A stretch of 63,681 bases of DNA, the filler included. It is 8 parts of 8 records of this genome, joined end to end, with 100 filler letters (N's around TTAATTAATTAA, not from the genome) between each part and the next. Parts side by side here need not be neighbours in the genome. Positions count along the whole stretch, not along the records: positions 51,145 to 57,972 come from SRR31147125_53799; 7 more parts are not named here. The stretch is one strand, 5' to 3'. The notes beneath the pieces were generated by a model, which saw nothing but the letters and a program-made list of their open reading frames with translations, was not told the origin of the DNA and ran no database searches. The position numbers were made by a program, and so were the translations under genes. Of the stretch, positions 51,145 to 57,972 are shown piece after piece; positions within the stretch are counted from its first letter, which is position 1, and each line of letters starts with the position of its first letter.

Positions 51145-51335
51145 TTTTTCTCCTAAATTGTTATTTTCCATAATACTCTCCTTAATAATTAAAAATTATA
51201 AATAATTTGTTTTTGTAGCGTAGAGGAGAAAGCAAATAATTATCTCACTCTATAAATAAACAAAAAATCAAATCTGTTATCTTTTGAAAACCTAGCATTA
51301 CTTTTTCTACGTTAGAAAAATATTTTTTGAATTGC

Positions 51336-51409
51336 GTATAATCTTCTGGAGATTGCCGACGTGCACATCGTTTCGATTTCATGTGCATGTTGGCAATCCT
51401 CTGTTAGCT
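51336..51409. repeat. attC-like hairpin site 1
   Basis: GTATAAT-N8-GATTGCCGACGTGCACAT...ATGTGCATGTTGGCAATC-N4-GTTAGCT; AAT in place of AAC. Confidence 0.7.
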
Positions 51410-51441
51410 GACGTAATTTTCGAAAGAAACCAATATCCTAC

Positions 51442-52287
51442 CTATTTTTTTGTTGCCTTTATCTTATTACAGAATTCCATTACCTTACGATCAACTTCAT
51501 CTGGATAACTATATTCTAACTTTTCACCAATATATTTCGCAAGCTTTCTAAATAAACTAGTTACCTTGTAAAACGCTTGCCAATTTTCTTCTATTCCTCC
51601 ACTTGCATATGATTGCTCAACTTCATTCCACACTTCAGGTGATAGGAGTTTTTTATATTTTTTACCAAGTGCACCTGTTTCTATTGACCAACCATTTTTA
51701 TATCCAATATGCCAATCAACTATTTTATGTAAAAATGAATACCTCAATATATTATCTAACATATACTTCGCAAACGGCAACTCATCTCTCCATAAATACT
51801 TGGGTATGTAATATGCATCCCACCAAAATTCATGTACTAATGCATTAAATTCCTCTTCTGTTGGTTTCTTAATTATAAATTCGCTATATGTACACTCAAT
51901 GGAATCTTCTATCTTTTTATCCTTATCTACTAGTATTTTATATCCATTATCATATCGATCAGTTTGAATTTTTTCTTGTTCTGTAATCTGAAAATCAATT
52001 CTTATACCATCTTCAAATAAAATTAATCTTGTAATCCATTCATTAGAAAAAGTAGAACGAGGCTTATATGGCCATCTAACCATAACTTTTCCAAAAGTAG
52101 AAAGCCAATTGTCATCCTTAACAAAGTACTGAATGTCTGAAACATATAATTCGATATCATAATCAGACAAAAAATCAACTTTATTATCCTTCTTAACTCG
52201 TGAACTAGTTAGTATTGCAGTTCTTACAATATCATTCCCTCTTGCCCACTCCGTAAATTGTGTTAATACTTGTTCTTCACTTCTCAT
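51442..52287 (-). CDS. Aminoglycoside 6-adenylyltransferase (AadK/AadE) family protein
   Basis: MRSEEQV...SSR...DFLSDYDIELYV, LILFEDGIRIDF, EFWW...YIPKYLWRDEL, GKKYKKLL, YSYP. Confidence 0.8.
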   Translation of the reverse strand: MRSEEQVLTQFTEWARGNDIVRTAILTSSRVKKDNKVDFLSDYDIELYVSDIQYFVKDDNWLSTFGKVMVRWPYKPRSTFSNEWITRLILFEDGIRIDFQITEQEKIQTDRYDNGYKILVDKDKKIEDSIECTYSEFIIKKPTEEEFNALVHEFWWDAYYIPKYLWRDELPFAKYMLDNILRYSFLHKIVDWHIGYKNGWSIETGALGKKYKKLLSPEVWNEVEQSYASGGIEENWQAFYKVTSLFRKLAKYIGEKLEYSYPDEVDRKVMEFCNKIKATKK

Positions 52288-52322
52288 CTGTGTCCCCCCT
52301 CACAAGATATCGGTTAGTATTC

Positions 52323-53204
52323 CTACAAGCTATCTTCTAATAAACTAAGATTCGCATAAAAGAACTGGTCATCAATCTTATTTCTCCTAACACACCAGGC
52401 TAGTTCACCTAAAGCATTATGGATTCTATATATAGGCAAGGTACCCTCGATATCAGGTAACTCTTCTATTGATTTATAACCGCTAATAAAAGACTCTTTC
52501 GATTTAGGATATACGTTCCATATATGCTCTGATATCTTAATGAAATCGATTGATGCTGATCCTCCACGTGATGATTCGAAATCAACTATACCTACCACTT
52601 TTCCCTCTTTAACAAGAATATTTCCAGGCCTATAATCAAAATGTACTAGACAAGGAATTTCTGATTTGAAACTCTCGTTCATTTCTAGTTCATAGAATTT
52701 TTCTAGTTTCTCCTTTAGCCCAGTGGATATATAACCATCAATTTCCAACAACCAGTTTTTATATCTTTTTCTTATACTCTCCCACCAGTCATTTTTCTTG
52801 TCATTTAGTTCAAACTTTTCTAATTTGATTCTATGTATTGATGCTAGAGCTTTTCCTATTTCGAAACTTTGCTCTGCACAAATTGGGAGGCTCATTGGAT
52901 CACCATCTATATATGACATTAATAATGCGCCAATATTTTTATTATCCCCATACCAGACATTAAGCAAATCAGGAACTAAAGGATTGCTTGATAATAACTC
53001 TAATGCTCTAGCTTCACGATAAACTTTCTCTCTATTAAATGGGATCTTCAAAACAACTTTATCGTTGTTCATTAATTTTAGTATTCTCACAGTAGAGCTA
53101 TATGACTCAGTAACTAATTCGACTGATTTAACATCTACATTGAAAATTTCAATTGCCTTATCGATTACGTCCATGTTGTTCTCCTTCAGTTGTATGATTT
53201 CCAA
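52323..53204 (-). CDS. Aminoglycoside phosphotransferase (APH/choline kinase-like) family protein
   Basis: VVLK, HFDYRPGNIL catalytic loop, VDFE. Confidence 0.82.
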   Translation of the reverse strand: MEIIQLKENNMDVIDKAIEIFNVDVKSVELVTESYSSTVRILKLMNNDKVVLKIPFNREKVYREARALELLSSNPLVPDLLNVWYGDNKNIGALLMSYIDGDPMSLPICAEQSFEIGKALASIHRIKLEKFELNDKKNDWWESIRKRYKNWLLEIDGYISTGLKEKLEKFYELEMNESFKSEIPCLVHFDYRPGNILVKEGKVVGIVDFESSRGGSASIDFIKISEHIWNVYPKSKESFISGYKSIEELPDIEGTLPIYRIHNALGELAWCVRRNKIDDQFFYANLSLLEDSL

Positions 53205-53278
53205 GACTTAAATTCTTGTCACTAATTCTTATCACACCATTAACATTGTGTATGAAACTTACTAAGGTAAAACTGTCC

Positions 53279-53329
53279 CTATAACGTTCCGCGAATATGC
53301 GAAGTGGAATCGCATATTCTCTGTTATAG
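53279..53329. repeat. attC-like hairpin site 2
   Basis: CTATAAC-GTTCCGC-GAATATGCGA-AGTGGAA-TCGCATATTC-TCT-GTTATAG. Confidence 0.85.
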
Positions 53330-53383
53330 GCAGTTTTTTCTTGGATGTTTGGGGAAAAACGGAGCCATGGATGGCGGAGTTTT

Positions 53384-54079
53384 CTATTTTAGCTTCATTA
53401 AGCATGAATCTACCCATTTCTCATCCATTTTTTTCAATCGGTTTTTCTTTAAGTTTTCCTTTATTATCCATTTAATATGTTTTCCTTGTAGATCAAATAG
53501 TTTTTCAAAAATGGTTTTACCTTCATTTGGAATTGCAGATATTGCAACACTCCAGCCATATCCTAAGGTTTTTCTTAAAGATGTGCTTTTTTTGTCAAGC
53601 TTTTCGTCATGAGCAAATTGCTTAGATATTTGTAGTAAGATATTAAGAACTGCTATATTTGATTCTCTATTGTCCAGTAATTTCGGCTCACAAAGGCCTG
53701 CGACAACAGCTCTTTGTTCAAGTTCACTTCCTTGGACAAAACATTCCAACTTTCCTAGAATGTCAGTCATTTTGTTTTCAGCTATTTCTTGAATCGATAT
53801 TGCTACCGATTCTCTGATTCTCCAGCTTTCATGATTGGCATATTGTTTTAAGAATGAAATGACGTCCTCTAAAGAATTCCGATTTTTAATTGAATATGAT
53901 AAAACTCCGCACATACCAACAAATTCTTCGGGAGAATTCTTTACAGTAGGTGTTATGTATTCAATACATTCTTTAATTTGTTCTTCATCTGCATTTTTTG
54001 AAAATTCATACAACAATTTTAAATTTCCTCGTGGCCCAGGCAAATTCGAATTCTCAATTAAATATTTAATGTCATACAT
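53384..54079 (-). CDS. HEAT-repeat-like hypothetical protein
   Basis: SNLPGPRGNL, ESWRIRESVA, LCEPKLL, LGYGWSV, WIIKENLKKNRL. Confidence 0.7.
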   Translation of the reverse strand: MYDIKYLIENSNLPGPRGNLKLLYEFSKNADEEQIKECIEYITPTVKNSPEEFVGMCGVLSYSIKNRNSLEDVISFLKQYANHESWRIRESVAISIQEIAENKMTDILGKLECFVQGSELEQRAVVAGLCEPKLLDNRESNIAVLNILLQISKQFAHDEKLDKKSTSLRKTLGYGWSVAISAIPNEGKTIFEKLFDLQGKHIKWIIKENLKKNRLKKMDEKWVDSCLMKLK

Positions 54080-54146
54080 TTATTTTCCTTTCTTTGTGCC
54101 ATGGATGGTGCAATGATAAATATAAAATTCTCCAAGAAAAAATTGC

Positions 54147-54224
54147 CTATAACGTCACGTGAGCTTACGACGTGGACATTCTTCCGAATTTATTGTCCAT
54201 GTCGTCGTAAGTTTGCAGTTAGGT
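54147..54224. repeat. attC-like hairpin site 3
   Basis: CTATAAC-GTCACGT-GAGCTTACGACGTGGACA...TGTCCATGTCGTCGTAAGTTT-GCA-GTTAGGT. Confidence 0.85.
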
Positions 54225-54356
54225 GTGTACTGAGTGACAACTTTCGAAACGTATAGATCTATGCTTAAGCCTTCTGTATGACTCCATCCATTCGTACAGT
54301 AAATCCAATCAGTTTTATAAATGTCTAGCCGTCAAGATAATATAAACGTAATGAAC

Positions 54357-54761
54357 TTAAATTCCGGATAATCTGGACTTAATACTGGTTACAATCAAAC
54401 TCCATTCCTCAAAGGAATTACTCTCTTCCCACAACTCAAATAGCTCTGAATTATCTTTCATCACTCTATCAATAGCTTTAATTGCACTTGGCACTAGAGT
54501 AGACACTTCCAAACTCTTCACTTTGCTAATAAATCCAGTAAATTCATCATTGTTAAAATCTGAATAATTATGCTCAGTTAAAACCATATCTAGGATTGCC
54601 GCAGAAATAAGTATTTCATGAGCCTCATCAACTTCTAAATACTCACTATCAAATCTACTAAATGCCTTCATCATGTACTCTACTGGGTTTTCCTCTACAA
54701 AATCGTACATGAAATCAGATGCATTATCATTCTCGAATATTCCAACTCCCCATGTTCCCAT
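54357..54761 (-). CDS. DUF4259-like protein
   Basis: MGTWGVGIFENDNASDF start with RBS GAAAGGAAGG; C-terminal SELFELWEE. Confidence 0.8.
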   Translation of the reverse strand: MGTWGVGIFENDNASDFMYDFVEENPVEYMMKAFSRFDSEYLEVDEAHEILISAAILDMVLTEHNYSDFNNDEFTGFISKVKSLEVSTLVPSAIKAIDRVMKDNSELFELWEESNSFEEWSLIVTSIKSRLSGI

Positions 54762-54889
54762 AGTAACCTTCCTTTCAAAACAAAATAATTTTATTAATAC
54801 TATATATTCCAATGCGTTACAATCCGTTATTCGTGATCTCTTTAACTTCAATTACATTATCAACTTTATCTTAGGTCGAATGAAATATA

Positions 54890-55381
54890 TTACATTCCCT
54901 CCATCATAATTTTTATGCTATCTCTTGAAAAACCAGTAGAAGTAGATGAGAATATTCCCATGACACCTCCAGCTATACATATTAAAATGAGAATCTTGAT
55001 AGTTAATTCAGAAACATTCTGACCTCCTAGTTCTTTTAACAAAATTGATATTTCTTTTGCTCCGTTCTTTATTAAAACCCAAATTAGAATAATAATCCAA
55101 ACGGCTACTACTGATATGTGAAATAAAGCAATCCATGGATTAAAGGGGGTTGGAAAAAGATAATACAAAAAGTAAGGAATTTTACCGAATATCATCCCTA
55201 GTCCAACAGCAATCCAAGGGACATTACCTACTAGAATAATACCTTTTGAAACACGTAAACCTATTTTCAAGTGTTCTCTATCTATTATTTTTGATTTACA
55301 TAAATAGTAGAAAAATCCTCCATATATTGATGTAGCTATAATTGAAATCACCCAAAAGAATTGTTGATAAATTACTAGCAT
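54890..55381 (-). CDS. Hypothetical four-TM membrane protein
   Basis: RBS AGGAGG; four hydrophobic segments. Confidence 0.7.
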   Translation of the reverse strand: MLVIYQQFFWVISIIATSIYGGFFYYLCKSKIIDREHLKIGLRVSKGIILVGNVPWIAVGLGMIFGKIPYFLYYLFPTPFNPWIALFHISVVAVWIIILIWVLIKNGAKEISILLKELGGQNVSELTIKILILICIAGGVMGIFSSTSTGFSRDSIKIMMEGM

Positions 55382-55423
55382 TAATTAACCTCCTAAGTCA
55401 TGTTAAAGTATCCTTTTATTTTC

Positions 55424-55520
55424 TCATAACGTCTACCGAATTGCCGACGTCTATTGGCTCAAAAATTACCCGCTTACCATAACCTTCAAGTCGATAGATG
55501 TTGGCAATTCGCTGTTAGAT
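55424..55520. repeat. attC-like hairpin site 4
   Basis: TCATAAC-GTCTACC-GAATTGCCGACGTCTATTG...CGATAGATGTTGGCAATTC-GCT-GTTAGAT. Confidence 0.85.
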
Positions 55521-55586
55521 GAAATATTCGAATGATCCCATTCCAACAAGCTAAAGAGTCACGCGACACACCTCATTGCTTATTCT

Positions 55587-56165
55587 TTATTGAGCATTAA
55601 GGAACAATATCATGAGATACTCACCGGCATAGGTACCATCACCATACTTCAATGCATGCTTCTTCGTCCCATGTATTTCAAATCCCAAACTCTTATACAT
55701 GCTTAAAGCTCGATTGTTATGAGTAACAACTTCCAATTCAAGTTGCTCTACCCCATTCCCTCTACTCCACTTTATACATTCTTCCATCATCGTTCTTCCG
55801 ATACCCAATCCCCAAAAAGATTTTCTCACAGATATACCTAATGCTGCTCGATGCAAATATCTTCGTTTACTCATAACTATTCCTACAGAACAGTTAGCTA
55901 CTATCTGTCCTTCAACTTCAGCTATCAAAAGTTGACTATTGGCATCATCTGCAAGGCTTCTTATAAAAGCTTCTTCTTGTTCTGCCGTGAAATCAAATTC
56001 CCCGGGTTCACGTGCCAAAAATCTCGTCTCACAGTCTACATCTTTCATATAATTGATTAGATTCTGTGCATCGCTCACTTCTGGGATTCTTACAATTAAC
56101 TGCTTATTGTCCTTCAATTCATACTTCTCTTTATAAGCTACTGTCTTAGCTTCGTGGTTACACAT
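55587..56165 (-). CDS. GNAT-family N-acetyltransferase
   Basis: LGISVRKSFWGLGIGR, LELEV...NNRALSMYKSLGF; RBS GGAGG. Confidence 0.9.
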   Translation of the reverse strand: MCNHEAKTVAYKEKYELKDNKQLIVRIPEVSDAQNLINYMKDVDCETRFLAREPGEFDFTAEQEEAFIRSLADDANSQLLIAEVEGQIVANCSVGIVMSKRRYLHRAALGISVRKSFWGLGIGRTMMEECIKWSRGNGVEQLELEVVTHNNRALSMYKSLGFEIHGTKKHALKYGDGTYAGEYLMILFLNAQ

Positions 56166-56281
56166 AAAAAATTCCTCCATTTAATATTGACTTCTTCAAA
56201 AATAATGTCACTAATATCGCTAATGTCGCCTTCCATGTAACCACCTCCTTCAAAATCATCTATATTAAAACGCTGAAAGCA

Positions 56282-56343
56282 TCATAACAGCATTGTTCTT
56301 TGCCCCTATTACCGAATGTGAATATGTCAACTCGCTGTTAGCA
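56282..56343. repeat. Degenerate attC-like site 5
   Basis: Right end CTC-GCT-GTTAGCA intact and left TCATAAC present, but the stem pairs poorly. Confidence 0.55.
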
Positions 56344-56362
56344 GACGTATATAATGACAACA

Positions 56363-56985
56363 TTAACCATTCTTTGATTCAAATAATGGCTTTTCTTCAT
56401 CACTAAGCTTAGGATATACTACTTTAAAATAGTAATTATTAGGATACTTATAACTGAAATACGTCAATAGTAAAGTTATAGGATAACCTGTGATCCAATT
56501 AATACCATACATAACTTCAAAAGAATCTAATCTTAACATAGTTATCTTTATAAATAACTTCATAGCATAAAAGATTCCCCAAATTAATGTCAATTTCCTT
56601 AGTGCAGGTCTACATTGATCATATATATTATCATTCTCAAAGAAACTCTTGGCTAATACCGAGACTAGGTCATTCTTAGTGAAATATGAAGCCAAAAAAA
56701 TTAGTGAATATAGAGTATTACTTACTAGTGGATAAATAAAAACAGTCATCGGATTATCTGATATAAATTCTATAAAAGAACTCACAAATAAACCTATCAT
56801 TCCAAAAATATTAAGTGGTGTAAATCTTCTATTAACTTTATAGACCGAAGCATACATTAGTAAACCAATAGTAAAACTAATAACAATAGCAACTCTAAAT
56901 GTAGTGTACTTAAAAAGATTGATGAAAACCAAAGCTGGTATAAAACTAAAAATCAATTCTTGATGCTTATAAAAAAACTCTTCAT
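56363..56985 (-). CDS. Membrane protein, VC0807/DUF3159-like (one-base frameshift in A run near 56975)
   Basis: RBS AAGGGG and ATG at 56985 rejoin the ORF if one T is added; LRKLTLIWG motif, several TM helices. Confidence 0.6.
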
Positions 56986-57020
56986 TGTAATTCCCCTTCC
57001 GAAACCGAATTATATATGTC

Positions 57021-57095
57021 TGTTAACGTCCCGTGAACTTACGACGTGGCCATCCTTCCAGTTAAAACGTCCATGTCGTAAGTTCGCTGTTAGGC
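57021..57095. repeat. attC-like hairpin site 6
   Basis: TGTTAAC-GTCCCGT-GAACTTACGACGTGG...CCATGTCGTAAGTTC-GCT-GTTAGGC. Confidence 0.88.
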
Positions 57096-57197
57096 GTAGT
57101 CTCACACGGAAGCTACTATAACCTATAGAATGAGCCACTTCCTCTTATCTTCATATCCTATATATGTATTATACAAGCCTCATTACATCTACGTTTA

Positions 57198-57584
57198 CTA
57201 GTCTAAATATGGATAGTTTTTTCTAACTTCCATCTGATACTCATCCAAACTCACCATCTTGTCTTCTCTAAAACGTATTACTGAAACTCCGTCAAATGTA
57301 TACTCAACTGAATCTACTTCGCAAACAAAATTCCAGATAGATGTTGCTACTTCAGAGTCATCATCGAAATACTGATTACTTATATCCCATGAAATTACAC
57401 GATTACCTTTAGAATGCCAACCGTCAAACCACTTCTCTGCTACATCAATACCAATATACATATCGCCTGTGCATTCTTTAACTATTACATCATGATTCAA
57501 AAGGGATAAAAATAATGTCTTATCCTGAGCAATCCAAGCTCTAAAATAATCTCTCGTTATTTGAGTTGCAACTTTACGATTCAT
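57198..57584 (-). CDS. SnoaL/NTF2-like protein
   Basis: YFRAW..QD, ECTGDMY.G, WNF.C, FDGVSVIRF...EY; RBS GGAGG. Confidence 0.8.
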   Translation of the reverse strand: MNRKVATQITRDYFRAWIAQDKTLFLSLLNHDVIVKECTGDMYIGIDVAEKWFDGWHSKGNRVISWDISNQYFDDDSEVATSIWNFVCEVDSVEYTFDGVSVIRFREDKMVSLDEYQMEVRKNYPYLD

Positions 57585-57633
57585 TGTACTCCTCCAAAAA
57601 AATCATTATTGTCTTAAACCAATGTGGGATTAC

Positions 57634-57705
57634 GCCTAACGTTCCGCTGTTATGCGAAGGGCAATTTGGGTGTAGCAAAGCGGAACCATATAGTCGTTGT
57701 TATAT
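57634..57705. repeat. attC-like site 7 (partly degenerate)
   Basis: GCCTAAC-GTTCCGC-TGTTATGCGAAG...GTC-GTT-GTTATAT; left arm resembles site 2. Confidence 0.65.
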
Positions 57706-57719
57706 GCTGTTGCAATTTT

Positions 57720-57972
57720 TTATGCACCCTTTTTAATTCTAATTTTTGTATAGATTGCCACGATAATCATTAAAGCTAATGTAAAAAGTGCTTTATATAG
57801 AGTGGTTGAACCTTCAAGTTCTGTTGTACCGAAATTGACTAAAACATCCCAAACAGCACCAATTCCCCAAAAAAACGGAAATATAATTAAAATATTATTA
57901 GTAATTCTAAATACTGATGCATACATAATTCCAACAAAAATTAGTTTTATAAACTCTGGTTGAAAACCTGCA
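57720..57972 (-). CDS. C-terminal part of a membrane protein (5' truncated)
   Basis: Hydrophobic ORF ending 14 nt before site 7. Confidence 0.6.

Follow-up and report, generated by a model that had tools for sequence, protein, structure and literature searches.

The hairpins between the gene groups of one short contig raise the question of why the mismatches in their stems are nearly all G opposite T on the strand that does not encode the genes. The contig is part of the window, a stretch of 63,681 nucleotides (nt) composed of eight unrelated pieces whose joints are N-TTAATTAATTAA-N spacers, and the sites are confined to a single piece, delimited in the segment table as follows.

51145–57972, strand not applicable: array fragment; separate contig of 6828 nt, 33% GC, cut at both ends

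The other pieces range from 38 to 57% GC. The G.T bias is genuine and reflects selection on the non-coding strand to fold, and the hairpins are, with good confidence on the comparative sequence evidence, attC-like sites of a clostridial, integron-like gene-cassette array, in which the folded gene-opposite strand would be the recombined substrate.

Seven sites are situated between gene groups and share the plan YTAAC-GTYNC-stem-loop-stem-(C)T-GTTAG on the plus strand. Both strands of each site were scored with R1, a covariance model made from the related sites described below.

51336–51409, plus strand: site s1; left box TAAT, not TAAC; R1 64.7 bits on plus, 20.1 on minus
53279–53329, plus strand: site s2; short 12-bp stem with zero wobbles and one C/T mismatch; R1 34.6 bits on plus, 4.9 on minus
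54147–54224, plus strand: site s3; R1 62.1 bits on plus, 14 on minus
55424–55520, plus strand: site s4; G.T at 23-56 and 26-53 of the basal stem; R1 28.1 bits on plus, 9.6 on minus
56282–56343, plus strand: site s5; degenerate, boxes kept, stem weak; no R1 match
57021–57095, plus strand: site s6; G.T at 14-65 and 26-53, A.C at the loop-closing pair 32-47; R1 71.7 bits on plus, 26.1 on minus
57634–57655, plus strand: site s7; stem absent; R1 18.5 bits, model positions 1-74 over 22 nt

The TAAC...GTTA(G/T) boxes occur in six of these seven sites, the departure being the TAAT of s1, and are invariant in 138 of 138 related sites. The 20-bp stem of s1 contains G.T at 14-65, 23-56 and 26-53 and A.C at 15-64, with an additional T.G in the box (7-68). 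In s3, four G.T pairs (14-65, 15-64, 17-62, 26-53) are accompanied by a 3-nt bulge on the 3' arm; s6 is its close relative, with 80% identity. The left box and spacer of s7 are fused straight to the right box, TAACGTTCC being followed by GCTGTTAT, as though the stem-loop had been lost whole, and beyond s7 lies a second GTTAT box at 57699, the interval being spanned by an 8-bp stem of 57641–57648 with 57678–57685. In addition to the sites, three cassettes end in long inverted repeats.

53323–53345, plus strand: right arm of the HEAT-repeat cassette end stem; pairs with 54131–54153 over 23 nt, one G.T at position 11
54131–54153, plus strand: left arm of the HEAT-repeat cassette end stem; ends in TAAC
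56337–56355, plus strand: right arm of the DUF3159 cassette end stem; pairs with 57009–57027, G.T at positions 5 and 11
57009–57027, plus strand: left arm of the DUF3159 cassette end stem
57089–57106, plus strand: right arm of the SnoaL cassette end stem; pairs with 57623–57640, G.T at position 11 and T.G at position 14
57623–57640, plus strand: left arm of the SnoaL cassette end stem

Within the common frame of the covariance model, the stems and TAAC/GTTA boxes of five sites comprise 93 Watson-Crick pairs, 12 G.T, 2 A.C and 3 transversion mismatches, the G.T/A.C counts being 4/1 in s1, 0/0 in s2, 4/0 in s3, 2/0 in s4 and 2/1 in s6. The three end repeats add 5 G.T (1+2+2) and no A.C, giving 17 G.T against 2 A.C on the plus strand (raw two-sided binomial p = 7e-4). 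A strand-neutral hairpin alignment, which scores G/T and A/C mismatches alike, yields 14 G.T, 6 A.C and 5 transversions in the in-situ hairpins. The preliminary description, made by eye, had placed G opposite T at all of 13 wobbles with one A/C exception. Its counts for the end repeats are exact and the direction of the bias holds, but the stem counts are inexact, with several sites undercounted, and the single exception is an overstatement: once the apical part of s4 is added, the balance becomes 19 G.T to 7 A.C and the test it had called for weakens to p = 0.029. Furthermore, the raw test overstates independence, because most wobbles occupy positions common to homologous sites (pairs 14-65, 23-56 and 26-53 and repeat position 11), so that the 13 cannot be taken as separate events.

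Folding of both strands, also proposed in that description, points in the same direction. With DNA parameters, the plus strand is lower in five of the seven sites (sums of -83.7 and -76.4 kcal/mol for the plus and minus strands), and with RNA parameters in six of the seven (-165.9 and -142.2). These energies also bear on whether the hairpins are intrinsic terminators or mRNA stabilisers of the cassette genes, a role for which their location 15–130 nt downstream of stop codons would be suitable. However, the mRNA strand folds less well, with A.C mismatches in place of the wobbles, and the coding strand has no T-run after the hairpins; a terminator scan found one candidate on the plus strand and none on the minus strand, with zero terminator-like sites on the coding strand at the window sites. 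The argument already raised against terminators is thereby borne out, and the terminator reading, rejected on the negative scan of the coding strand, is given next to no probability.

A search with the exact pattern common to s3 and s6 leads to four stretches in four Clostridia genomes, namely metagenome-assembled genomes (MAGs) labelled Clostridiaceae and Clostridiales, Dethiothermospora halolimnae SD1 (G003), and a complete Vallitaleaceae MAG chromosome (G004). In the case of G004, a regular expression gives 186 matches of 66–73 nt, two of them false, all on one strand between approximately 3,449,733 and 3,610,792; the array thus comprises about 184 sites of uniform orientation across 161 kb, and R1 finds at least 150 matches in this genome. 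One further strong match of the site model (82.2 bits, G004:C1:1724259-1724332) stands alone, 1.7 Mb from the array.

Among 138 unique 69-nt sites of G004, the stem cells contain 2957 Watson-Crick pairs, 332 G.T, 9 A.C and 14 transversions, a strand bias far stronger than in the window, in the very kind of larger set where the preliminary description had allowed that none might appear. The G.T pairs are concentrated at 26-53 (138 sites), 14-65 (90), 23-56 (59), 27-52 (23) and 21-58 (18), and none of the columns in these 138 sites has frequent A.C. Each G004 site holds 3.18 G.T pairs on average, against 0.12 on the opposite strand. Of 176 unique sites, 175 have the lower energy on the site strand (-18.5 against -14.4 kcal/mol with DNA parameters; -34.3 against -25.8 with RNA parameters), and so do 183 of 184 modelled circular forms, which upholds the earlier proposal of selection on folding of the non-coding strand. 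Eleven more divergent sites from three genomes retain the direction, with 22 G.T and 8 A.C.

The stems themselves are maintained as pairs. In 30 diverse sites, 97.9% of the cells are paired against 91.6% in shuffles, none of 500 shuffles reaching the observed values, and slid registers reduce the pairing to 26–51%; compensatory change, with both sides differing, is present in 9 of the 20 stem pairs. At least 126 of 140 unique site bodies show a 20-bp pairing without gap or bulged base, the exceptions with a bulge being s3 of the window and a cassette family in multiple copies whose sites have one additional G in the 3' arm. The central spacer, of conserved sequence, is unpaired and asymmetric, the 5 nt of GTYNC facing 1 nt.

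Strand skews arise from replication and transcription, and the bias could accordingly be an unselected by-product of strand-asymmetric mutation or composition. The background composition runs the other way: outside the sites, the plus strand is G-poor (G+T 0.46–0.47; GC skew -0.23 to -0.27), with a G+T fraction in the window of 0.47 outside against 0.54 inside the sites; the G+T fraction of the stems is 0.56. A G-poor plus strand would therefore produce more A.C than G.T. Both C>T-type and A>G-type differences are present, and two of the wobbles are invariant across 130–138 unique sites, neither of which is in favour of a mutational origin. This reading was rejected, as the bias opposes the background composition, and it retains only a negligible probability.

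The pairing extends beyond the sites to the ends of each cassette, when the sequence right of one site is compared with the sequence left of the next. In G004, the median paired length is 19 nt for the two ends of the same cassette and 8 nt with the in-situ neighbour. The letters of this end stem vary among cassettes, but position 11 is T.G in 130 of 130 unique G004 cassettes, and the same wobble occurs in all three window repeats, in G003, and in two further genomes (G171 and G072) whose inner sites are quite different. Apart from position 11, positions 5–17 of the end stems contain 23 G.T and 3 A.C, and the edge positions 18–19 contain 2 G.T and 24 A.C. The polymorphic inner wobble 23-56 is likewise the 11th pair from the central spacer, with T on the dyad-related strand; the matching 11th-pair wobbles hint at two protein subunits bound in inverted orientation.

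Cassette boundaries are defined by a G004 cassette of about 706 nt. In 13 copies, the DNA left of TAA|C is unrelated, the hairpin, right box, gene region and terminal ...TAA| are shared, and past this terminal TAA| the next hairpin differs. The hairpin is thus part of the same cassette as the gene to its right, and the crossover would lie at TAA|C in the gene-distal box, with the resolution limited to the invariant letters TAACGT. The longest open reading frame (ORF) is opposite to the site strand in 152 of 183 G004 cassettes, and the plus strand of the window is, on this sequence geometry, the 'bottom' strand of an integron cassette. The earlier analogy to the bottom strand of attC is sustained both by the geometry, with a site that follows the gene on its 3' side and a crossover in the distal box, at TAA|C, and by the published G:T excess. 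A transposon bounded by terminal inverted repeats, with the hairpin outside the unit, was ruled out, as the hairpin variant moves with the cassette. At least 13 copies of the ~706-nt cassette, with the extra G on the 3' arm of their site, are scattered through the G004 array (L015–L023); no other bulge recurs in this site family.

The folded molecule is most likely single-stranded DNA, since the two ends of a cassette that pair in the 19-bp outer stem become neighbours only in the excised circle. Alternatively, the hairpins could act in an antisense RNA transcribed from the plus strand, with G.U pairs at the RNA level and no DNA recombination involved. G.U is stable in RNA, and the advantage of the plus strand is indeed larger with RNA parameters, in the window sums as well as in G004. 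Such an RNA would nevertheless leave several features unaccounted for, including the coincidence of the sites with boundaries set by repeated cassettes, an outer stem linking ends 0.5–4 kb apart, and a tyrosine recombinase at the head of the array; in addition, neither the contig nor a related array has a meaningful Rfam match. An antisense RNA is accordingly considered very unlikely.

In G004, a gene for a 336-aa tyrosine recombinase lies about 1.1 kb beyond the last site in the direction of the cassettes, and the same layout, with the recombinase directly upstream of the array and in the same direction, is observed in G003 and G171. In all three genomes, pairing connects the junction beside the recombinase stop codon to the distal end of the first cassette; in G004, it is the left side of this junction that pairs with the far cassette end, including the position-11 wobble, and is followed by two direct repeats. 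The first G004 cassette beside the recombinase (L015 10828-11855) encodes an APH-family protein, seemingly split into two overlapping ORFs, and the first G171 cassette (L024 1780-2440) contains two small ORFs resembling, by eye, an antitoxin/PIN-toxin pair. The recombinases of G003 and G004 share 44% identity over their full length, including an N-terminal stretch of approximately 90 residues without Pfam family. The alignments show the box I arginine region as well as the HxLRH ... Y motifs. Of the NCBIfam models, XerA_Arch scores highest (232.4 bits; cut-off 220), and the XerA structure 5hxy aligns without a break.

The family is large, with 7780 proteins at E <= 1e-20 among 8000 scored candidates, many of them from Alkaliphilus, Natronincola, Clostridium, Marinisporobacter, Tindallia, halanaerobes and Peptococcaceae, and its members often bear the NCBI name 'site-specific tyrosine recombinase/integron integrase'. 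In a sample of 401 genomes of the class, 16 have close homologues, several of which lie at contig ends. The Clostridiaceae MAG (G001) contains at least four recombinase copies on different contigs, and no sites of the short family lie within ~1.5 kb of the two copies examined.

Such a recombinase could instead act on double-stranded targets of the Xer/dif type, the G/T differences between the arms then being fixed half-site differences and not wobble pairs. Xer sites are short and double-stranded and need no hairpin folding. The enzyme scores equally on Xer and IntI models and passes the XerA cut-off, and the fixed positions of the wobbles are what half-site differences would produce. However, most positions of the stems and end repeats vary and yet stay complementary (nine double-changed pairs; end positions 5–17), and free variation with complementarity kept is a signature of pairing, not of sequence reading. 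The cells that depart from Watson-Crick pairing are almost solely G.T on one strand (332 against 9), and the stems of 20 and 19 bp are far longer than Xer arms. The Xer/dif form of two ~11-bp arms around a 6–8 bp centre, without need of structure, contrasts with hairpins of 69–190 nt. Targets of the Xer/dif type are thus unlikely, if somewhat less so than an antisense RNA.

Under the preferred reading of a gene-cassette array with attC-like sites, each cassette would carry such a site 3' of its gene or genes, and the bottom (plus) strand would fold as single-stranded DNA. The outer stem would be built on TAAC/GTTA and, in the circular cassette, extended to ~19 bp by the cassette's own ends; between it and an inner stem of ~20 bp with a loop of ~14 nt there would be an asymmetric internal loop, in which GTYNC on the 5' side faces a single base on the 3' side. 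The tyrosine recombinase from the head of the array would be the candidate enzyme, cutting the bottom strand at TAA|C, and the cut strand would be exchanged with an attI site or another attC-like site. The G.T pairs would serve as marks of the strand, as they would keep the bottom strand paired at positions that become A.C mismatches on the top strand; the recombinogenic hairpin would consequently form from one strand only, and the cassettes would enter in one orientation. The fixed positions of the wobbles suggest that they are also read by a protein.

Several observations weigh against this reading. Counts from homologous sites are non-independent events. In the window, s3 is tied and s5 folds better on the minus strand with DNA parameters, and the long end repeat is kept by only three of the six cassettes. 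The inner/apical part of s4 (55455–55493) contains 2 G.T and 5 A.C on the plus strand, and the apical parts of other long sites also hold A.C on the site strand, although C/T-rich, G-poor loops may explain these. In the ~190-nt site family of G171, the bottom strand is the better whole-site fold in only 2 of 9 sites, with 2.78 G.T per site on the top against 1.33 on the bottom strand; the basal stem of 7–9 bp is uninformative there, and the position-11 wobble is the sole strand mark. Contig 51145–57972 contains neither a recombinase gene nor an attI, and its link to a recombinase would run through the relatives, as judged by sequence. The IntI model TIGR02249 (cut-off 265) is not passed by the recombinases of G003 (211.6 bits) and G004 (186.9 bits), and no protein of the four carrier genomes scores above this cut-off. 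The TIGR02249 match falls into two stretches that skip model positions ~179–234, and residues 181–239 of IntI4 (2a3v), which include the IntI-specific insertion, face 17 residues, the insertion being absent. The mechanism of integrons is therefore not simply to be assumed for this enzyme. Moreover, R1 finds only one other genome among 150 further sampled genomes of the class. At six loci beside recombinase homologues, R1 gives only three weak matches, because the arrays there use other site families, and a strict generic hairpin scan of the same loci gives one site.

Two features of the apical parts stand apart. The s4 segment 55455–55493 would fold better on the coding strand, opposite to its basal stem. 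Meanwhile, the long sites of four genomes share a GC-rich conserved apical module (L013 8462-8579; L001 1013-1138; L026 2627-2699 and 3526-3599; L024, e.g. 2572-2662), which reads ...GAnCCGGACCC..AAAGCC.TTCT..TTGGCGG.GCT...CCCGGTGAA... on the site strand and has no Rfam match.

The contig contains nine ORFs, all on the minus strand; six pass Pfam cut-offs, one has HEAT-repeat hits below the cut-off and two have no family.

51442–52287, minus strand: ANT(6)-like aminoglycoside nucleotidyltransferase cassette gene; PF04439, 3.9e-77
52323–53204, minus strand: APH-family phosphotransferase cassette gene; Pfam
53384–54079, minus strand: HEAT-repeat cassette gene; weak hits, below the Pfam cut-off
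54357–54851, minus strand: DUF4259 cassette gene; Pfam
54890–55381, minus strand: cassette gene without Pfam family
55587–56180, minus strand: GNAT acetyltransferase cassette gene; Pfam
56363–56956, minus strand: DUF3159 cassette gene; Pfam
57198–57584, minus strand: SnoaL-like cassette gene; Pfam
57720–57926, minus strand: ORF without Pfam family near the contig end

The ANT(6)-like and APH-like genes (51442–53204) are separated by a site-free gap of 35 nt and, because a site between them is absent, form one two-gene cassette. A blastn comparison of the contig with plasmids gave no match. Upstream of the DUF3159 gene, a promoter-like match on the minus strand (57009–57037; TTCACG, 17 nt, TATAAT; 10/12) covers both the end repeat and the left portion of s6. 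Promoters may be carried on the cassettes themselves; in total, matches of this kind do not exceed the level of shuffles.

Integrons are generally regarded as nearly absent from Firmicutes. We consider it somewhat better than an even chance that anaerobic Firmicutes have an integron lineage of their own, with an Xer-sized recombinase without the IntI domain, attC-like sites without extrahelical bases, strand identity given by position-fixed G.T pairs (outer 11, inner 26-53 and 23-56) together with the 5-against-1-nt spacer, and arrays of up to ~184 cassettes across 161 kb. Integrons are held to choose their strand largely through extrahelical bases that the IntI-specific domain recognises, and an integron geometry kept without either would alter this picture. 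If true, the recombination of cassettes as single strands would have an earlier origin or a wider distribution than assumed, and the arrays would offer a natural experiment on how an Xer-like enzyme chooses one DNA strand, explain some breaks in clostridial assemblies, and represent a reservoir of cassettes in anaerobes, with genes of the ANT(6), APH and GNAT types among them.

The published survey with IntegronFinder 2.0 mentions one complete integron in Firmicutes and 'a few CALIN', that is, clusters of attC sites lacking an integron integrase (PMC9024848), and the CALIN lists belonging to that paper may already include such arrays. According to a 2024 preprint, Bacillota belong to the clades in which integrons had previously not been found. 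Among open-licence PMC papers and bioRxiv, no publication on integron-like clostridial arrays was found. What appears to be new is the clostridial form, in which the recombinase lacks the domain and the wobbles keep fixed positions; the G.T bias itself is known for integrons. In the relevant passages of Nivina 2016 (PMC5027507), the bottom strands of classical attC sites fold better by 2.12 kcal/mol and hold 1.24 against 0.39 G:T mispairs per site, and the excess is proposed to favour recombination of the bottom strand; the wobble bias observed here is, on that report, a known property of attC.

Compared with integron attC sites (class 1; the VCR/IntIA system of Vibrio cholerae), which IntI recombines as folded bottom strands, the clostridial arrays likewise have one orientation and mostly promoterless cassettes. 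Their sites resemble attC in the imperfect hairpin 3' of the gene, the RYYYAAC...GTTRRRY-type boxes, the unpaired central spacer, a crossover corresponding to the AA|C in the distal box of the gene-opposite strand, and a bottom strand that folds better and carries more G:T (as in the PMC5027507 passages). The G004 array is, in addition, large, homogeneous and chromosomal like the Vibrio superintegron. However, there are significant differences: the clostridial sites are mostly without extrahelical bases (at least 126 of 140 bodies), their spacer has a conserved sequence and a strong asymmetry of 5 nt to 1 nt, their outer stem measures ~19 bp where that of attC has 7, the wobbles are position-fixed and number 3.18 per site against the 1.24 given in PMC5027507, and the hosts are Clostridia. 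Unlike IntI, the recombinase lacks the IntI-specific insertion and reaches 211.6 bits against a cut-off of 265.

In the case of archaeal integrons, the sections of the preprint on their layout describe a putative attI immediately downstream of intI, similar to the attI-like junction just downstream of the clostridial recombinase, with an attC fold as in bacteria and IntIs that keep the additional domain missing here (10.1101/2022.02.06.479319). The excerpted text of Smyshlyaev et al. (PMC8138268) describes the IntI-specific insertion as 'not fully conserved' in an integron-like recombinase subgroup. The clostridial recombinase has the size and domain make-up of the Xer enzymes (XerC/D, XerA, XerH, XerS), including the absence of the insertion, but has ~90 extra N-terminal residues without Pfam family, and its arrays differ from Xer/dif in the long covarying stems, the one-strand wobble bias and the arrangement in cassettes. 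In integrons of the Treponema type, the integrase gene points in the cassette direction, and the clostridial recombinase gene does so as well.

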